Of a DNA stretch of 25,867 bases, positions 5,435 to 25,867 are shown one piece after another; position 1 is the first letter of the stretch; each line of letters starts with the position of its first letter. The stretch lies in the NCBI GenBank assembly GCA_016839585.1, contig JAEOTZ010000085.1:1-25867 (forward strand). Reading direction: 5' to 3'. The stretch is from Promethearchaeota archaeon (lineage in GTDB: Archaea > Asgardarchaeota > Lokiarchaeia > Sigyniarchaeales > SOKP01). Made by a program: the position numbers and the translations under genes. The notes beneath the pieces are model-generated. The model was not told the DNA's origin and searched no databases. It saw nothing but the letters and a program-made list of their open reading frames with translations.

Positions 5435-8400
5435 TTAAATTTTATAGATTAATGAGTTTCGTTTATTAATCTCGAAAATTTTAGCCTTTTCTTTTATAAA
5501 GGAAGGATCTACTTTCACTTTATTTCTTATAAATCTAAGAGTTAATGGTTCATCAATTATTTTTGATGATAGATAAAAAGCTGCTCCCACTACATGAGGA
5601 ATATAAATGTTATTTGTAATTCTATCTCTCATCCTTGCTTCTTTGATGATTTGGATTACATATTTTACACATTTTTGTGAAACGCCCAATTTTTTACCAA
5701 ATTCCACCACATGTATTATTAAGCCAATATCTTTTAATTCCTTATCAAAAATTTGAAAAGCTTTTCTTTTATTTCTTATTGTTTTTTCATTAATCCCTAG
5801 TTTATTAGCAATATCCCTAAACGTCAAATGTTTGTTGAAAAGTTTCGATATAAGATAATACATCGAAGCAATATCGAAATGCAATGTTTTTTTATCGTTA
5901 ATTAGACCAGCTCTAACCGCTTTTCTAATAAAAAACCTAACAAGTAAAAAGTATTGCTTTGAAGCATTAAATTTTTCAGCAAACTTTCTACTAATAGTTT
6001 TTATTTGCCTCCTGATTAACATTTTTTCCAAAAAGTCAAAATTATGTGTGGAGTTTAAAATTTTTATATCCATTGAAAATTTATTTATTATTTCCGTTTT
6101 TGTTATTGGCTTGTATAATGCCAATGAAGCTAAATAAAAAGCTGTAGCTATTATATGTTTTATATTATCTCTAAATGTTATCTTCTTTTGCTCTTTAGCT
6201 TTCATTATTAAAGTTTTAGTAAATTCGATGCAATCATTTGAAATTTTCAAATCATTTGCCATAATCTTAACTAAACTATTAATCTTGAAAGAAAGAAACT
6301 CATCTTCAAATGACAAGAATACTTTTTTCTTTAGATGTAAGGTTCGATAAGTAAAATTTAACTTTTTAGAAATTATTCTTAACGCTTTATTCTCATTAAA
6401 TGCTTTTGTGGTGAAAAAATAAGCAACTGCAATATAAAATTTAATATCAAAACCTAATTGAATATAACATTGTTTTACTGCTTTATTAATTAATTCTTCC
6501 GTGTATTTGATACAACCTGTGGAGATACCAAGCTTTTTTCCATACTCATTTACTAAGTTATGAATTTTAAGAATAGTATTATCGTTCTTATCTTTTTCAT
6601 ATAAATCAAGTTTGTCAGCAATATAATCCCATTTTATATTAACTTTTTTGGCTATATCCTGGATTGTCACATTTCCAATTAGAGTATCAAAAGCTATGTA
6701 ATAGGCTGCAGCAACTATATGCTTAGAGTAATCACTCTTGTTAATTATTTTTTTTACTAATGCTTTTTCTATAAGTTTCTTTGTAAAATTCTTAACTTCA
6801 TTAGAAACTTTTAACCTGTCTCCGAATTTATCAAGAAAAGCATTTAATTGTATTTTTTTTAGAAAAAAATCATAATATTGGAATTTTTTTTTAACCTGTG
6901 AAAGGGAATATCTATCAAGATTGAGTGTATTAGAAATTGTCTTAAGAGTAACTGGTTCATTTAATGCATTTGAAACTAAATATATAATCGATGCTGTAAG
7001 ATGTTCAATATTATCCTCTATTTCGATAACCCCTTTTCTCAAGGCTACACGAATTAAATTTTTAGAAAGAGATTTACATACTTTTGAAATACCTAATTTT
7101 TGGTAATATATATTTATAAGGTTTTGGATTTGGATTCTTAGTAAATAGTTTCTTACTATCTCAAAATCCCTCAATCTATTTCTCAAAGTACTATTATGTA
7201 GATATATTTGCTTTAGAATTTTTTCTTGAGTCGTTTTATTATTATAAGCTTTAGCTGCTAAGAATAGAGCAACAGTAATATAACCTTTTGTAATCCTATT
7301 TTTTTTTATAATTTTCCGATTATAAATCCTTTTTATGATTTTCTTAGCAAGATTTTTAATCTCTAAATTAACTTTAAGTTTTGTAGAGTATTGTTCAACC
7401 AACGATATGTAATAAGATATGGATTTCTTGGTTGCTTCCTGATAATTAAAGTTATCAGGAATTCCATAAGTTTCTTTAAAATATTTCTCAAATAATGTAT
7501 TAATCTTATTATAAATAAGTACTTTTTGTGTTGGATTTTTACTTTTAAAAAACCTTATATCAGAATCAAATAATTTGTGGAATTGCTTAATTTGATTATC
7601 ATTAAGGCTCTGCTTTGAAAAAATATATTCTAATTTTATTTCAGGGATTTTTTCAGATGTATCAATTTTTTTATCTAATTCATTTCGAAAAATTTTATAA
7701 AGATTTCTTGTTCCAAACTCTTTCTCCAAATCATCTAAATTATATAAATAGACCTCAAGATCGTGGCTTTCAGAGAGTCGTTTTATCTCCTCTAGATCAC
7801 GCCTTCCAATTAAATCTATTATAAAATCCCAATATTTTATGTAGGATGATATCTGAATTATTTGTCTAAAAAGTTTATGACTTATAATTCTGATATTTTC
7901 ACAATTTTTTTGTAATAAGAGATCATCTTCCGGTAGAGAACGTGTTTGAACTTTATTTTTCCAGTGGGTTCCTACAATGAGAAAAAAAGTGTGGCTATTT
8001 GGATTGTATTTATTTATTTTATTGATTAAATTATCTTTAGATAAATTACTTGTTATATCAATAGTAATATACTTTATATTTTGTTTTTTATTCTCGGATA
8101 GATTTAGAAATTTAAATAGATTATCGAAGATATGCTTTGATTTTATATTTTTTTTGATTAAACCATCTGGATGAATATTAAGATTCGGTTTATATATATA
8201 AGGCTCACTGTAATAAATAATACTTCTGTTTTTTAGTTCTTTAGTTAATAATTTAGCAATAGCTAAATGGGCAAACAAATTTACAAAATGGTCGTAATAT
8301 TTTGAGTAATTTTTACCTCGAGTTCCTTTTATATTGTCATTGCTGTTCAATTCATTTATATTTTCCAAATTTTCCTTTAAAAGGTCCTTCAAATTATTCT

Positions 8401-16527: not shown

Positions 16528-17568
16528 TTACTTTCCGTCAAAAATTTCTTCTTGATTTTTTTTTAATTTTAATAGTTGCTCACGAATAACAGTATCATAT
16601 CCCAATTTTCCACTAGTTTTAGGTAAATCTTTCAAAGCTTTTTTATAAGCTATTAAGGCCAGTTTTTTATATTTCTCTCTATCCCAATAACTCCCTAAAG
16701 AATCGAAGACCTCACCAATTCGAGACCAATTGTTTAATAATTCATATAAAAGGTTAACTCCTTTTTTATAATTAATAAAAAAATGATTTTTTCTCCAAAT
16801 ACGGAATTGTTTGGTGGGAAAAACCTTATAAGCATCCAATAATAATTCCCAGCATTCAGGATCATTATAAAACTGGAATATAACATATAAAAACTGTGAA
16901 TTATATTTTAAATTTAAATAAATGTTATCGATGAAAATAAACTCTTTAAGATCTTCCAAATTGATCTCTCTCTGATAAAAAGTAAGTTCATTTAAATATT
17001 CCTCAACAATTATTTCAATCTCTTCTTCATTCAAATACTTTAAATATCCAATTACTATCAGATATTTACCAGCAAAGGGTCTATCCAATAATCTTTTTGC
17101 AATTTCTTCCTTGAAAACTTTTTTAGCAATAGGGTCTCCTACTTTAGTTAGTTCTTCTAATAATGGAAAAGATAAACTACTATGGAGAAGCCTTGTATCA
17201 TAATTATTTTCTGCCCATGCTTGAAGATTTGAGCAATGTGCCCAGAATTCTGTTTCAGGGTCAATATTAAATTCATAAATTGGGTATTGTTCTAAAGATC
17301 GATCTAATCTCTCTGCTACCTCATCAATAGATTTAATATCGTCAAAAGAACTAATATCAGCAACTGGGATATTTAACATTAAAAATTTGCATTGTCGAAA
17401 TCTTTTCTTGTTTATATAGATATATGTACGATCAAAAAGCTTACAAACAGTAATGAACTCATTTATTTCAAATGTTTTTATCTTCGGGTCAATTCGAGCA
17501 ATATGCTTGCCAAAATTGTTTTTAAAACACTCTTTTATTTTTCGGTCATTGTGATTCATCTTAATCAA
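16528..17568 (-). CDS. Hypothetical protein with a conserved EFWxHCSNLQAW domain and a helical/TPR-like C-terminus
   Basis: 346-aa ORF containing CKFLMLNIP..SIDEVAE..PETEFWAHCSNLQAWAENNYDTRLLHSSLSFPLLEELTKVGDPIAKKVFKEEIAKRL. I recall this domain from an expanded lokiarchaeal family often fused to LRRs (unverified). C-terminal ALIAYKKAL is TPR-like. The start may be the ATG three codons in. Confidence 0.8.
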   Translation of the reverse strand: MIKMNHNDRKIKECFKNNFGKHIARIDPKIKTFEINEFITVCKLFDRTYIYINKKRFRQCKFLMLNIPVADISSFDDIKSIDEVAERLDRSLEQYPIYEFNIDPETEFWAHCSNLQAWAENNYDTRLLHSSLSFPLLEELTKVGDPIAKKVFKEEIAKRLLDRPFAGKYLIVIGYLKYLNEEEIEIIVEEYLNELTFYQREINLEDLKEFIFIDNIYLNLKYNSQFLYVIFQFYNDPECWELLLDAYKVFPTKQFRIWRKNHFFINYKKGVNLLYELLNNWSRIGEVFDSLGSYWDREKYKKLALIAYKKALKDLPKTSGKLGYDTVIREQLLKLKKNQEEIFDGK

Positions 17569-18628: not shown

Positions 18629-19096
18629 TTATTTAGATTTTAGGTTAAATCCTTTAACTCCCTTATCTTTCTGCTTAGGTATAGTTTTTAAATCTGTTGA
18701 TGTTTTAGAGATTGATTCAGTTAGCAAATCCAAGTCAATATCTTTATTCTCAACAATAAATTCAAAAGCCCTTTTATTTTTTGAGAATAGTTCGTTTATT
18801 ATATTGTAAAGCCCTAAGACATGAGGTACTTTCTCAATGATTTCTTCCATTTTTTCAGTTTTTCCGTTTAATTCATTAAGTACTTGTCTTAATTCTTTAT
18901 TTTCCTTTTCGAGAGTATAGATTTTATCTACTTTTTCTTTATATCCATTGACCTTTAAGCTAACTTCTTTCAGATTACCGATTAAGACTAAAGATTCAAT
19001 TTTCTCAATGTAATTTTTGATGATTCTTTCTAAATAATTTGTTATGTAATATTGGTCAACAACGCCTTTTATTTCCAAATTTCCAATTACTTCCAA
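18629..19096 (-). CDS. Hypothetical coiled-coil protein
   Basis: 155-aa ORF with heptad-like LEKENKELRQVLNELNGKTEKMEEII. TTG start is uncertain. Confidence 0.6.
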   Translation of the reverse strand: MEVIGNLEIKGVVDQYYITNYLERIIKNYIEKIESLVLIGNLKEVSLKVNGYKEKVDKIYTLEKENKELRQVLNELNGKTEKMEEIIEKVPHVLGLYNIINELFSKNKRAFEFIVENKDIDLDLLTESISKTSTDLKTIPKQKDKGVKGFNLKSK

Positions 19097-19155
19097 ATTT
19101 CAACTGCACATTTTGCTTTAAAAAAATAAATTTCTTTCATATTCTTAAGAAAGGG

Positions 19156-19277
19156 TGACTCCTGCCAACGAGACGCAAAAGCGCGTCTGAAAGATACAAT
19201 AGGGGGAGGAGGGCGAAATCAGAGTGTAAAGACTTACACTACCAAAAGACAAAAATCCAGGGTGTAGGCAGGAGTCA
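19156..19277. ncRNA. Candidate structured ncRNA, copy 1 (unknown family)
   Basis: GC-rich island in AT-rich intergenic DNA. 11-bp closing stem TGACTCCTGCC/GGCAGGAGTCA, hairpins AGACGC/GCGTCT (19171-19188) and AGTGTAA/TTACACT (19223-19240). The core is repeated at 23924-24016. Confidence 0.72.
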
Positions 19278-19783
19278 TGGTTTTTCTATAGAGATAATTC
19301 AGAAATAATTGAGACATTTATTTAATTTTAAATCTTGCGTAAATATATGATTTAGGGTTTATATAATTATTCGTATTTGAATTGGTATTTGATTTAAAGT
19401 ACCTCTAATTGAAGATTTTTCACGGATGTCATATGAATAAATCGAAAGGTCAATCTTAAATTTAATAAGGATTCGATTCTGAATAATAATTTATAAACTT
19501 GCACCACAGTAACCTACTATATAGCTCTGAATATTATTTAAAACAATATCAGATAGCATAAAATTACATAAACTGAGATAGAAATCTTTATTTAATATTA
19601 ACCTAATTATTCGAAGGAAATGTGGAGAGATTCTTAATAGCGAATAGAGAAATTTCGGGAAGAACAGAGAAAAACCCATATTTTCTCATAGAAAGCAGTG
19701 ATAATAACTAATACATGAAAAACATCAATGGTGGGTTAAATAAAATAAAATTAAATATTTACAAATAATATTATAATTAAGAC

Positions 19784-20791
19784 ATGAAATCATTTAGTAA
19801 TAACATTCTTCAAGATATATATATTCGAGACTTAAAAATTAATGATGCAGTACTTATAATAGATTTAATTATATCTGAATATGGTGAGAATTATTGTGAT
19901 AAAGAATTTTATGATATTAATGTTTTAAAATATTATTTATTGAAAATCTCTGAAAAAAAAGAAGGTATTTGGAAAGGAGCCTTTTTTAAAAATCAACTAA
20001 TTGGTCAAATGTTCGTAATTATTAGACATAATACCTTTTTCGTTAAATTGACGATTTTGAAGAATGAGTTTAGAAATAGGGGCATTATTAATAGATTAGG
20101 TAATGAAATGGTTAGATCTCATTATGACTTTAAAAATTCAAAAATAAGATGTTGTTATGCTTTTGTTGATAGAAATAATCAATCAATTTTATACATATTA
20201 AAAAAATTTAGATTTTATAGTGTTGGCTCTACACCCTATCATGAAAGTGATAAAAATTATATTATATTTGCGAGAATTCTATTTGATTTCAAACAAAAAT
20301 TAATTTCACCTTATTCAAAATTAATTGGAAAAATAAAAAAAACTATTTGTGAAACTAATATACTTAGAAGTTTTAAGATAGAAAAATCTCAAGATATGCA
20401 TGTATTAAATAGAAATAATAATGATATAAAGATAATAAAATTAAAACAAAATTTTCCTTTTAAATATCAAATTTTAATTAATAATAAGCTATGTGCTGAA
20501 TTTATTGAAAATGAATATAATAAATCTTGGTATGATTTTCAATTTTTTTATAATCTAACTTTAAAATCAAAGTATTCTATTTTAACAACAATAGTAGATT
20601 TTTTTAAAAATACAAAAGGAATCAATGCATTATCTATTCCTACACACGTAAATGATAATACTCTTCAAAAATATCTTATAAAAGAAAATTTAAATTATTA
20701 TGCTTTTTTGCCATTTTATTATGGACAAGAAGATGCAATTTTATTAGGGTTATCTAAGATAAAATTAAAAAAAACTAAAGCTATTTCATGA
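19784..20791 (+). CDS. GNAT-family N-acetyltransferase with a degenerate second domain
   Basis: IYIRDLKINDA, LIGQM, TILKNEFRNRGII (motif A) and N..ILYILKKFRFYSVG. Overlaps the next gene by ATGA. Confidence 0.75.
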   Translation: MKSFSNNILQDIYIRDLKINDAVLIIDLIISEYGENYCDKEFYDINVLKYYLLKISEKKEGIWKGAFFKNQLIGQMFVIIRHNTFFVKLTILKNEFRNRGIINRLGNEMVRSHYDFKNSKIRCCYAFVDRNNQSILYILKKFRFYSVGSTPYHESDKNYIIFARILFDFKQKLISPYSKLIGKIKKTICETNILRSFKIEKSQDMHVLNRNNNDIKIIKLKQNFPFKYQILINNKLCAEFIENEYNKSWYDFQFFYNLTLKSKYSILTTIVDFFKNTKGINALSIPTHVNDNTLQKYLIKENLNYYAFLPFYYGQEDAILLGLSKIKLKKTKAIS

Positions 20792-22323
20792 AGCCTAAAA
20801 TCTTGTTTCTAAAAAGTTTAAATCCAGAATTATTATCAACCGAAGCTCTTGCCTTAAAAATATTTAACAATCCTAAGTATGATAAGCATCCTTTAATAAA
20901 TAAAGATTCAATTGAAAGAGCATTTAAAGAATATGATGAAAAATTAAATCCATTAAATCGCGAAATGCTTCCAGCTATGACAGATATAAATCTGAATATC
21001 GAAGGCAACTTTATTTCCAAAAATATTCCTGAAATTCAGAGTGTTGTCATTAATGAAATATGTACTAAACAATTATTATATGAAACTCTAAACAAATATA
21101 GCGATATTACTCATATTGGTCTCAGTGCATATGCATCAGGAATGGATAATACAATTGAAATAATAAAAACTATACAAGAAGAATATTCTCACATAGAATT
21201 ATTAGTTGGGGGTGTTGGAACAGTATATTCACAAATTCAAAATTTGATTCCTCCTAAAAATATATGCATAGGAGAAGGAGTTAATTTTCTTCGCAAAAAA
21301 TTTGACTTGCCATTACTTTCGAGAGGGAATTTTAGAATTCCAAAAATCTTTGGATATCTAAGTAATATTCCTCTTTCCATAAAGACAGCCTACATGATTA
21401 CACAATTAGGCTGCCCCTATAACTGTGATTTTTGCATAACATCAAAATTTTTTGATTATTTTCCTTTCTCTAATTATAAAAAAATTATTAATTTTATTGA
21501 AGAATTAAGCCTAAAATCTCAGAAGGATATATTTATTTATTTATGTGATCCTAATGGATTCAATCCAAAATCACAATGGAAGAAAGTATTTAATTATTTT
21601 ATAGAAAATCCAAAAAGTATAGATAATAATATATTTATAAGTGTTTTAGCCTCTCTTTTTCACATAAATAAATTTCAATTAGAAGAGATTCAAAAAAAAT
21701 CCCCCCTAAAAATATTTTTTATTGGCTATGGAATAGAAAGCACATTGAAGGGAGGATATTTAAAAAATAAAGGAAATTATGCTAAAGTCATTAATAAATT
21801 AAATAAAAACGGGATTATCACTTTTCATACATGTATTATAGGACTTCCTATTCATACAAGAAAAAATATTATTACTGATATTAAAAAAAATTGTAAATTA
21901 AAATCAGATATTATCTCTTTTAATACTTTTAAACCAATTCCTATAACACCTCTCTATAATCAATTAAAATCAGAAGGAAGGATTTATGAAGAAAACTTAC
22001 CTCCAGAATTGTTATATTATGAAGGATTCATGCCTTTTAAGCACCCACATTTAGGCTCTGGATTTGATATATTACCATATGCTTTCAAAGCTTATTATGA
22101 AAGTGAAAAAAAAATAATTGACATATTTAATAACTTAACAAATAAATTTATAGATATTTTCAAAATTACAAATTCAAGAAAAATTGGTCGAGTTTTAAAA
22201 GTATTTATGGAATTAAGTAAAAAAAACTATGATTATTTCTGTCCAAGAATGTCACTTCACTTATCAAAGATATATGCAAAAAGAATGCATAAAACGCTTG
22301 ACAGAATTTCAAGTACATTATAA
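20788..22323 (+). CDS. B12-binding-domain radical SAM protein
   Basis: N-terminal cobalamin-binding-like HIGLSAY...LLVGGVG...IGEG, followed by TQLGCPYNCDFC (CxxxCxxC), IGYGIES, IIGLP and PIPITPLYNQLKSEGRI. Confidence 0.9.
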   Translation: MKPKILFLKSLNPELLSTEALALKIFNNPKYDKHPLINKDSIERAFKEYDEKLNPLNREMLPAMTDINLNIEGNFISKNIPEIQSVVINEICTKQLLYETLNKYSDITHIGLSAYASGMDNTIEIIKTIQEEYSHIELLVGGVGTVYSQIQNLIPPKNICIGEGVNFLRKKFDLPLLSRGNFRIPKIFGYLSNIPLSIKTAYMITQLGCPYNCDFCITSKFFDYFPFSNYKKIINFIEELSLKSQKDIFIYLCDPNGFNPKSQWKKVFNYFIENPKSIDNNIFISVLASLFHINKFQLEEIQKKSPLKIFFIGYGIESTLKGGYLKNKGNYAKVINKLNKNGIITFHTCIIGLPIHTRKNIITDIKKNCKLKSDIISFNTFKPIPITPLYNQLKSEGRIYEENLPPELLYYEGFMPFKHPHLGSGFDILPYAFKAYYESEKKIIDIFNNLTNKFIDIFKITNSRKIGRVLKVFMELSKKNYDYFCPRMSLHLSKIYAKRMHKTLDRISSTL

Positions 22324-22331
22324 AGTAATAT

Positions 22332-23513
22332 CTATTTCTCCAGAAAATATAGATCACCTTTATTAATTACTTTAAAAAATCGTTTAATAATATTTAAGAC
22401 GAATTCCTCTTCTTTATCCTTTTTTTCCATAAAATGCAAAACCAATTCTTTTAATCTTCCATTATTACTATAATTTCTCTTTAATAGTTCCAAGAGTTCG
22501 TTTCTAATGAATTGTTCTTCTTCATTATCATCTTTTTTCGTTATTTTGATGTGAAAAGCAAGATCGATTTCATTTTCAAGAGATATCCAATGCAATTTTT
22601 CAAGAAATTTTAGAAAATTAAGGGGATATTTATCAATTGTTGAATATTGTCTAAAATCATTTAAAATATAATTTATCCAATTATTTAACGAATTTTGAGA
22701 ATTAAAATTTAAAAAAATTTCATTATCTTGCGACATTTTAATCCATAAATAATGATCTTTATCATTTATTATTTTAGAAAAATTTACTAAATGCTTTAAA
22801 TTATGATCTAATAATCTCATCCTTTCTTTTTTAGCAATATCTGAACTCCTAAATAAAAAAGTTTCTTTGAAATCGAATCGTGCATATAAATCCGTCTCAG
22901 AAAACATAAAATCTTCCACTTTTAATCCTAATATACTTAATATTCCTACCATTCCTTTGCAATTCTCAAAGTGGAGGTTTTTGTAAATTCCTATATATTC
23001 TAAAAAGCCTTTAAAAAATTTACTATTTTTTTCTTTGAATAAATCTATTCTTATTTCCTTTGTTAATTTGTTGGATAATAGATATCGTTTAAGTCTTTCT
23101 ATTATTATCTTTATACTATTGAAATCATTCGGATCAACTTCATTAATTACCCAATTCCTAAATTTTAATAATATACTAGGAATCTTATTAATATTTAGGA
23201 TAGAATATTTATTCATTATAATTCCAATATCAAAGAAAGGTATAACTGCTTTGAATGAGATATTATCATAAATATCAGTAATTTCTTTATCTGGAATTAT
23301 TCTAATATCTTCAAGTGATTTTCCTGATGTTAAAATTTCCATGCATTTTTCTAATAAAAAAGAACAAAACACTGATTTATTCTTATATCTTAAATCCTTA
23401 GGATATTTATTTCTATTTTTAGACAAATATCTGTCAATCCATTCATTTAAAGCTATAGATACTGATATTGATAAAGGTTCTTTTTTATTAGATAAGAATT
23501 TTTTAGTAGTCAT
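22332..23513 (-). CDS. Hypothetical protein with N-terminal ribbon-helix-helix-like domain (possible regulator)
   Basis: 393-aa ORF starting KEPLSISVSIALNEWIDRYL...NKSVFCSFLLEK, an alternating beta-strand plus two helices with an N-K-S motif typical of RHH. Convergent with the radical SAM gene, 8-bp gap. Confidence 0.65.
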   Translation of the reverse strand: MTTKKFLSNKKEPLSISVSIALNEWIDRYLSKNRNKYPKDLRYKNKSVFCSFLLEKCMEILTSGKSLEDIRIIPDKEITDIYDNISFKAVIPFFDIGIIMNKYSILNINKIPSILLKFRNWVINEVDPNDFNSIKIIIERLKRYLLSNKLTKEIRIDLFKEKNSKFFKGFLEYIGIYKNLHFENCKGMVGILSILGLKVEDFMFSETDLYARFDFKETFLFRSSDIAKKERMRLLDHNLKHLVNFSKIINDKDHYLWIKMSQDNEIFLNFNSQNSLNNWINYILNDFRQYSTIDKYPLNFLKFLEKLHWISLENEIDLAFHIKITKKDDNEEEQFIRNELLELLKRNYSNNGRLKELVLHFMEKKDKEEEFVLNIIKRFFKVINKGDLYFLEK

Positions 23514-23913
23514 TTTTCACAAAATTATAATGTTAATATCGTATATAATTTAGTATTATCTAAAACTACATAAATATTTTTATTAAAATTTAAAATCAGT
23601 TGTCCATTTTTTCCTTTTCATAGAAAGTTTCTTAATTTTTTTTCTAATATAATACGTATTTATTTATATATAAACTAATCGATCATTAGTCATATAATAA
23701 TACTTAAAAATAAGAGGATTATTAAAGACTCATATTTTTCTTTCAAAAATATGAATTGTTATTAAATATGTAAAATTTTGATTTGACATAAGAAAAAGCT
23801 AAAAATTGAAAAACTATGTTGCGTGTGATAAAAAGAAAAATAGATATAAAAGATAAAGACTCTCATTTCAAATCATTCAAGTAGGAAATCCTACAACATA
23901 TTCATTAAAAGGA

Positions 23914-24033
23914 AGCACCCATCAACAAGACGCAAAAGCGCGTCGGAAAGATACAATAGGGGGAGGAGGGCGAAATCAAAGTGTAAAAGACTACACTTCC
24001 CAAAGACAAAAATCCAAAGTGATGATGGGTGTT
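23914..24033. ncRNA. Candidate structured ncRNA, copy 2 (same family as 19156-19277)
   Basis: Closing stem AGCACCCATCA/TGATGGGTGTT (one G-U on +), hairpins GACGC/GCGTC and AAGTGTA/TACACTT. The 93-nt core has about 7 differences from copy 1. Confidence 0.72.
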
Positions 24034-24255
24034 AAAATATTTTAGGATTATTTTAATTTTTATCTTTAATTTCATATATTATATGATTCGAAAAAGTGTA
24101 ACATTGGGAATAGATAGGTATAAATTCAAGTTTTTCTTAATTTTATGGAAAAGAGATGATTTACATAATTCGCTTAGAAAATAATTTTAGGACCTTTAAA
24201 AAGACATGGGTAGTAAAAAGAATAAAGCTTATCACACTTCTTTAATTTTTATTAT

Positions 24256-25551: not shown

Positions 25552-25867
25552 CTTATTAACAACCTTTTTAGGATTTTTCTTACAAAATCATTTATAGAGA
25601 CCTCTATAGTGATAATAATATAATTAAACTCCCAAAATTTAAAATTTAATCAATTAATTATTTTAATTATAATTTTCTTTTGAATTGATTTAATAATGAC
25701 CAATTTCGATTTAACCAATTACATTGACCTAAATTCTTACATAAAGAGAAGGGAAGAGAAAAGAAATCTGAACAGACATAAAAATACCAGGGAGAGATTA
25801 AACTCAATAGAGTTTAATAGAGGGCGAAATCCAATGCTAGCTCAAATTAATTTAGAATAAATTTCTC

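Follow-up and report, generated by a model that had tools for sequence, protein, structure and literature searches.

The 25,867-nucleotide (nt) stretch of DNA analyzed here (the window) comprises contig JAEOTZ010000085.1 (positions 1 to 25,867, forward strand) of the assembly GCA_016839585.1, from a Promethearchaeota archaeon of the class Lokiarchaeia; it corresponds to contig C76 of a genome that consists of 91 contigs, spans 3.45 Mb and is 99% complete. The window contains two copies of an intergenic element, copy A (19153-19283) and copy B (23910-24040), which share a core of 93-95 nt (92.6% identity over 95 nt) and which are shown here to be paralogs that encode a structured small RNA of ~120-130 nt not described before. 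An earlier note on this DNA had reported such a pair with a common core and a perfect 33-nt run; both were recovered by direct reading, when positions 19100-19300 were aligned with 23860-24060, and BLASTN matched copy A to copy B, within the 3.45-Mb genome, with E = 7e-32, i.e., far above chance. Similarly, reading and folding upheld the observation that the closing arms of the two copies are unlike in sequence, each arm pairing with its own partner, while the one-base shift in the register of the second hairpin was reproduced in the positions given below and similarity was found to resume outside the closing stem, on its 5' side.

Copy A, a full match to the covariance model described below (140.7 bits), is closed by helix P1, for which the left arm (19156-19169) and the right arm (19264-19277) form 11 bp between 19156-19166 and 19267-19277, an A.A mismatch, and further pairs between 19168-19169 and 19264-19265. 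The closing helix encloses hairpin P2 (hairpin 1; 19171-19188), with 6 bp between 19171-19176 and 19183-19188 that covary between copies, and hairpin P3 (hairpin 2; 19223-19240), with 7 bp between 19223-19229 and 19234-19240. Two long single-stranded junctions connect these helices; the junction between P2 and P3 (19189-19222) is purine- and G-rich with a Shine-Dalgarno (SD)-like GGAGG when read on the plus strand, and C/U-rich with an anti-SD-like CCUCC when read on the minus strand, and the invariant junction between P3 and P1 (19241-19262) is A-rich on the plus strand, and U-rich and Sm-site-like on the minus strand. On the left, P1 is abutted by a conserved AAAGG(G) (19150-19155), which in a minus-strand reading follows the helix as a short and fixed CC(C)UUU tail; on the right, a run of five T (19281-19285, plus strand), located 3 nt past P1, represents a possible plus-strand terminator. 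Copy B (109.4 bits) shows the same layout, with a P1 that pairs at 10 of 10 positions (23915-23924 with 24023-24032, including one terminal G-T) in a sequence unlike that of copy A, a P2 (23929-23944) formed by 23929-23933 and 23940-23944, and a P3 (23979-23998) formed by 23979-23985 and 23992-23998, in a register that is one base off that of copy A. The junction of copy B that is homologous to the invariant one (23999-24019) carries 3 changed positions, which are the sole deviations seen in the RNA family. The coordinates given for both copies are those of the element, for which the evidence on the strand is weighed below.

Both copies fold far better than dinucleotide shuffles on both strands (z = -5.5 and -5.1 on the plus strand and -5.1 and -4.4 on the minus strand, for the two copies; 0 of 200 shuffles were equally good), and the same three-way junction is predicted for A and B on either strand. 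The helices were further evaluated by a covariation test, in which a model-based alignment of 50 diverse copies, with 24 modelled base pairs, was compared to 500 column shuffles. Double (i.e., compensatory) changes were found at all 24 of these pairs; standard pairs occupied 92.5% of cells, compared to 77.1% in the shuffles, and double changes were present in 151 cells, as compared to 31 after shuffling. None of the 500 shuffles reached any of the observed covariation measures, and pairing fell to 27-43% when partners were slid by 1-3 columns. The alignment was fitted to the model, which somewhat favors structure; the same outcome as in the alignment test was seen in raw sequences from paralogs whose P1 arms are entirely different and yet pair. 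These data show an architecture that consists of a three-way junction with a P1 of 11-14 bp, which is variable in sequence and maintained in pairing, an optional P2, a conserved P3, and two long single-stranded junctions. The proposal of the earlier note, that selection acts on a folded single strand with a multi-way junction and invariant single-stranded segments, is thus supported by the covariation of 24/24 pairs, together with the lack of an Rfam match described below, and a check for homologues with arms that fail to pair found that the homologue arms do pair. Small open reading frames (ORFs) that span the element (e.g., 23905-24075 on the minus strand) were dismissed as coding sequences because the helices covary.

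The individual modules of this RNA are conserved to different degrees. Hairpin P2 is dispensable, because one genus (g9) lacks it; this genus has kept P1 and P3, with different sequences. In certain copies an extra hairpin is inserted in the junction between P2 and P3, and this junction is kept among orthologues of the primary copy (i.e., the copy found at the syntenic locus described below) and differs among paralogs. By comparison, the junction between P3 and P1 (19-20 nt) is identical in all full copies examined, with small deviations in copy B only. Several of the hairpin loops read CGAA on the plus strand, which is UUCG on the minus strand.

The same genome contains, in addition to A and B, a full copy that is split over two contig ends with identical sequence (C65:1-134 and C80:1-128), a diverged full copy (C16:15046-15175), and two fragments (C64:37580-37659 and C16:28635-28676). 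Among the copies in this genome, hairpin 1 is changed on both sides at two pairs and the closing stem occurs as three different sequences, all of which pair. Comparisons with relatives, by BLASTN with copy A, yielded matches in 97 of the 101 genomes of the same GTDB family, including 36/36 high-quality ones. With a covariance model built from 38 copies (R1), the RNA was detected, in a phylum-wide sample, in all 25 genomes of this family (f1) and in none of the 125 genomes that represent 26 further Asgard families; the class-wide sample gave matches for 119 of 126 f1 genomes, for 1 of 13 genomes of the sister family f2 (a fragmented genome), and for 0/11 genomes of other families. Cultured relatives of the MK-D1 type seem to be without the RNA. 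The number of copies ranges from 1 to 18 per genome. An exact scan of public genomes for the 19-nt invariant core identified more than 118 contigs, nearly all of which are labelled Promethearchaeota or Promethearchaeia, the latter being the current name of the Loki lineage. Within one Lokiarchaeial (Promethearchaeia) family, the RNA thus belongs to the core features, being present in nearly every genome. The description of the element as a candidate new non-coding RNA family of Asgard archaea with two copies hence stands with regard to the new family, and gives way to a range of 1 to 18 copies per genome and to a distribution in one Lokiarchaeial family rather than in Asgard archaea at large.

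A search of viral contigs returned four matches, three of which are chance matches inside ORFs. The remaining sequence, L126:20-146, is a divergent full copy (33.7 bits) at the start of a 224-kb contig that is classed as viral (IMGVR_UViG_3300029288_000001); this contig either is of host origin or represents a large mobile element of Asgard archaea with a copy of the RNA. Separately, a short near-palindrome in the genome studied here (G000:C71:15399-15440) contains the GGGCGAAAT and CCTCCCCCTAT motifs of the G-rich junction of the RNA in inverted order, and may be another small structured element.

Comparison with known RNA classes did not place the element in any of them. Rfam 15 (4227 covariance models), searched against the whole window, matched only the large-subunit ribosomal RNA at 1-1427, and at E <= 10 the region 19000-24200 yielded, over both strands, two chance matches, both off the element; there is hence no Rfam match to the element on either strand. 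ARAGORN did not detect transfer RNA (tRNA) or transfer-messenger RNA genes in the window, and the negative outcome of the ARAGORN, Rfam and context tests agrees with the earlier view that the element falls outside the tRNA, C/D guide and riboswitch classes. When applied to the whole genome, ARAGORN reported 11 tRNA genes without introns allowed and 30 with introns allowed, which points to many tRNA genes of this genome being intron-bearing or unusual. The element was also considered as a divergent 5S rRNA because the Rfam model (RF00001) gave no 5S match in this genome; RF00001 did not match the element, and separate 5S genes are found elsewhere. Specifically, relatives (L049-L054) carry separate full-length 5S genes that score 25-33 bits against RF00001, i.e., below the gathering score of 38 bits, so that standard annotation will miss the 5S genes of this Lokiarchaeial family, and use of a relative's 5S identified a 5S-like locus in the genome studied here (C88:199-272). 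The RNase P RNA and the signal recognition particle RNA were likewise located elsewhere. A loose likeness to Y and vault RNAs, which had been pointed out previously, was not supported, as the 99%-complete genome has no TROVE/Ro match; in addition, the stem sequence of the element varies between copies. Finally, identity as an H/ACA or C/D guide RNA was rejected, given that a reading of the alignments showed no conserved ACA after P1, no kink-turn in P3 and no conservation of C/D-like strings, and that no Rfam guide family matched. A full-text and preprint literature search found no description of this RNA. The family is genuine and new, and its members are structured RNAs of Lokiarchaeia.

The primary orthologous copy shows conserved synteny, being located between a divergent, tes-like radical-SAM gene with a zinc ribbon and a gene that encodes a 130-amino acid (aa) membrane protein; this arrangement is kept across at least 6 genera. 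The primary copy lies 200-270 nt before the gene for the small membrane protein when read on the plus strand and 180-410 nt before tes when read on the minus strand. Copies A and B are paralogs in contexts other than this primary locus. To the right of the element (in plus-strand coordinates), primary loci contain a conserved block, whose palindromic core agrees with the promoter consensus of the lineage, and then a TATA-like block. Copy A has retained this flank at 19322-19368, as a promoter-like block, in which the near-palindromic AAATTTAAATTT block is present in degenerate form, plus a TATA-like block, and copy B has retained the promoter-like block at 24050-24069, ~20 nt right of P1; the duplicated unit therefore reaches ~130 nt beyond P1. 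Genome-wide, the right-hand block shows no orientation preference towards genes. On the minus strand, a 14-bp pairing between this block and the invariant junction is possible, including three G.U pairs (C.A on the plus strand), and block variants are mostly A-to-G changes. This potential pairing is a lead only and is not established as a helix, since an unvarying junction places it beyond the reach of the covariation test. In some lineages only, a second downstream segment is complementary to the other junction, in a manner that crosses the first pairing.

The context of the paralogs shows that the RNA is a stand-alone gene, rather than the leader of a fixed downstream gene. A cis-acting leader of an adjacent gene, such as a riboswitch, an attenuator or a protein-binding leader in which P1 would act as the switch helix, could explain why a variable P1 is combined with conserved junctions, as in riboswitch aptamers, why the primary copy lies at a fixed distance before the membrane-protein gene (plus) and tes (minus), and why part of a junction has a complement downstream in some lineages. 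However, the 43 paralog loci have unrelated neighbors, with a co-oriented downstream gene at only about half of them, on either strand; copy B is not followed by a plus-strand gene; and in genus g2 an ORF on the opposite strand separates the RNA from tes. One of the two junctions furthermore varies between paralogs, P2 can be lost, and the next gene is a long way off, with terminator-like runs and a separate promoter-like block in between. We thus consider a leader function very unlikely. An explanation at the DNA level, in which the element would be a miniature inverted-repeat transposable element (MITE) or another non-autonomous mobile element, or else a recombination site in single-stranded DNA, with P1 as terminal inverted repeats, appears more improbable still. 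It would account for the multiple copies, for the inverted repeats at their ends, and for the break of the assembly at one locus, but the arms of A, B, the C16 copy and many paralogs differ and yet pair, which ends that are recognized by a transposase would not allow. In addition, covariation is seen in each of the three helices, the internal ones among them; the synteny of the primary copy extends over at least 6 genera; and three of the four viral-contig matches arose by chance inside ORFs. Target-site duplications and a cognate transposase, named in the earlier note as the marks of a MITE, were looked for, and neither a duplication flanking A or B nor a transposase or integrase domain beside copies whose neighbors were Pfam-scanned was found. 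A role as an integration (att) target, comparable to that of tRNA genes, was unsupported as well, because many of the apparently 'partial' BLAST matches are full-length paralogs with different arms and because three of the four viral-contig matches are due to chance.

With regard to the strand that is transcribed, sequence comparisons suggest that the RNA is more likely read from the minus strand of the window than from the plus strand. Among 75 unique sequences, helix mismatches of the A.C type, which are G.U pairs on the minus strand, outnumber G.U pairs by 58 to 21 cells and, when distinct helix variants at internal positions are considered, by 33 to 14, in counts that are not phylogenetically independent. 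In genus g2, the primary copy has a conserved C.A in the middle of P1 (i.e., a G.U on the minus strand), and the minimum free energy is lower on the minus strand for 57 of the 75 sequences; the UUCG reading of several hairpin loops on this strand points in the same direction. Several points weigh against this assignment. Runs of at least five T within 15 nt after P1 are found in 43% of copies on the plus strand and in 13% on the minus strand, and runs of at least six T in 20% and 1%, respectively; on the minus strand, all that follows P1 is the short CC(C)UUU(U) tail, whose position is fixed and which is the minus-strand reading of the AAAGG conserved to the left of P1. A-rich unpaired regions, as found on the plus strand, are typical of structured RNAs. 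A promoter matrix derived from the tRNA genes of this genome (consensus AAAATTTTAATTAT) did not separate the strands, and it is from the DNA that we infer transcription itself, its strand and the ends of the RNA.

The same RNA family, read from the plus strand, would represent stand-alone RNAs with A- and G-rich junctions that end at the oligo-T run, and in which the GGAGG-rich loop would either mimic an SD site, bound by the 3' end of the 16S rRNA or by a protein, or constitute a tertiary element rich in G. This plus-strand alternative is possible, and it draws on the T runs and the A-rich unpaired regions, on the similar T-run ends of the tRNA genes of this genome, on the slightly better folding of A and B on the plus strand, and on plus-strand G.U pairs in some copies (e.g., the C16 copy and the terminal pair of B). 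The wobble counts, the conserved C.A inside P1 of the g2 primary copy and the free energies argue for the opposite strand, and a tRNA-type promoter was not consistently found upstream of the element on the plus strand; overall, we regard the plus-strand alternative as the less probable one. The earlier note had left the strand unsettled, and the signals found here likewise point both ways: wobbles and energies speak for the minus strand and T runs for the plus strand. The cues it had used point the other way, however; G-U pairs had been taken to favor the plus strand and a U-rich tail the minus strand, whereas across the family the wobbles favor the minus strand, and it is after the plus-strand stem that the long U-runs are found.

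The best explanation of these data, with a probability of roughly 0.6, would be a minus-strand-leaning family of protein-bound, sibling trans-acting small RNAs (sRNAs), i.e., several paralogous stand-alone sRNAs that would share a protein partner and differ in their targets. When read on the minus strand, the invariant junction would be a U-rich, Sm-site-like stretch between two helices and the variable junction would be a C/U-rich loop that contains CCUCC. The constant module may bind a protein, for which an Sm-like (SmAP/LSm) ring would be the obvious candidate, and the variable exposed loop may pair with targets which, for the primary copy, would probably be SD regions of mRNAs. P1 would serve as a structural clamp only, such that its sequence could drift with compensation. 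The combination of a constant module, a variable loop, a drifting clamp, paralogs and stand-alone genes corresponds to the design of sibling trans-acting sRNAs. SD motifs are in use in this genome, in which the region from -18 to -8 relative to ORF starts shows an enrichment of GGAGG and GAGGT, and four matches to LSM-domain genes (e.g., at C74:1075-1269) were found. On the other side of the balance, the number of LSM genes, mostly 3-4 in families with the RNA and 2-3 in families without it, is too weak as a co-occurrence signal, a target search with the C/U-rich loop retrieved generic SD-like sites only and no specific target, and an Sm-like protein is a candidate partner only. A single-stranded U-rich Sm-type site between helices is, moreover, present only when the RNA is read from the minus strand. 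A more specific and rather unlikely proposal is that the family represents the RNAs of Sm-type ribonucleoproteins (RNPs) of an Asgard lineage, with a G-A-U5-G site on the minus strand that would load an LSm/SmAP ring and with loops of the different paralogs that would direct the particle to different RNA targets.

Whatever its function, this RNA family merits an entry in RNA catalogues, as it is compact, near-universal in one large Lokiarchaeial family, multi-copy, strongly covarying and absent from Rfam. Its absolutely conserved 20-nt single-stranded module, from which copy B alone deviates, provides a concrete handle for finding a partner, and allows for a test for Sm-type RNPs with exchangeable targeting loops in this lineage. 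In at least one assembly, copies of the RNA, which are at present unannotated, are located at contig ends.

Other features of the window are described here for context. Copies A and B are direct repeats that flank a 4.6-kb segment, in which the products of an overlapping gene pair (19784-22323, plus strand) are a protein of 335 aa that belongs to no known family and a radical-SAM enzyme of 511 aa. The genes at 16528-17568 (346 aa) and 22332-23513 (393 aa), both on the minus strand, encode proteins without a Pfam family that belong to lineage-specific families; in other genomes, members of these families are again found next to paralogs of the RNA, at 7 and 4 loci, respectively. For the 393-aa protein, which groups with hypothetical proteins of Promethearchaeota, a homologue adjoins an RNA copy in three other genomes, an observation that provides context only. 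Further to the left, three very large neighboring genes (5435-16374, minus strand) encode proteins of 1673 aa (a TFIIB repeat and a helix-turn-helix), 631 aa (a HerA-type ATPase) and 1279 aa (no family), and may form an island. At the right end of the window, a near-identical stretch of ~70 nt (25790-25867), which overlaps the end of a small ORF (25696-25860), is also present at the ends of contigs C16, C42 and C64 and inside C3, and probably represents a multi-copy element that causes breaks in the assembly.

A number of known RNA systems share some of the properties of this family. The Hgc RNAs of Methanocaldococcus are GC-rich orphan structured RNA genes of AT-rich archaea that are represented in Rfam; the RNA described here likewise is a GC-rich folded island in AT-rich intergenic DNA and a stand-alone gene, but it has no Rfam match, including to the Hgc families at E <= 10, is found in another taxon, and is multi-copy. 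C-rich anti-SD sRNAs are exemplified by RsaE/RoxS of Firmicutes and sRNA41 of Methanosarcina mazei. The primary copy, if read on the minus strand, would similarly expose a long C/U-rich loop with CCUCC, in a genome that uses GGAGG-type SD sites; differences include the lack of homology, a loop that is not kept in all paralogs, and a target search that yielded no specific target. Eukaryotic Sm-class small nuclear RNAs (snRNAs) carry an Sm site, R-A-U4-6-G-R, between two stems. In a minus-strand reading, the invariant junction would present a single-stranded G-A-U5-G between two helices, in an Asgard host with several LSM-domain genes; by contrast, the base after the G is U rather than a purine, there is no Rfam snRNA match, and nothing suggests splicing. 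The restriction of the RNA to a single Lokiarchaeial family means that it does not go back to the ancestor of all Asgard archaea; if the Sm-type proposal were true, the family would be a counterpart in prokaryotes to the design of Sm-class snRNPs, having arisen either by descent or convergently. Finally, sibling sRNAs that depend on Sm/LSm (SmAP) proteins or on Hfq include Qrr1-5 of Vibrio and the SmAP-associated sRNAs of Sulfolobus and Haloferax. The family described here differs from these in that it gives no sequence or model match, in that Sm-like binding is only putative, and in its three-way junction closed by a long terminal helix, which is atypical of sibling sRNAs. What it shares with sibling sRNAs are several paralogs per genome, stand-alone genes, stable flanking helices, a variable exposed loop, a short U tail and, if it is read from the minus strand, a constant U-rich single-stranded module.

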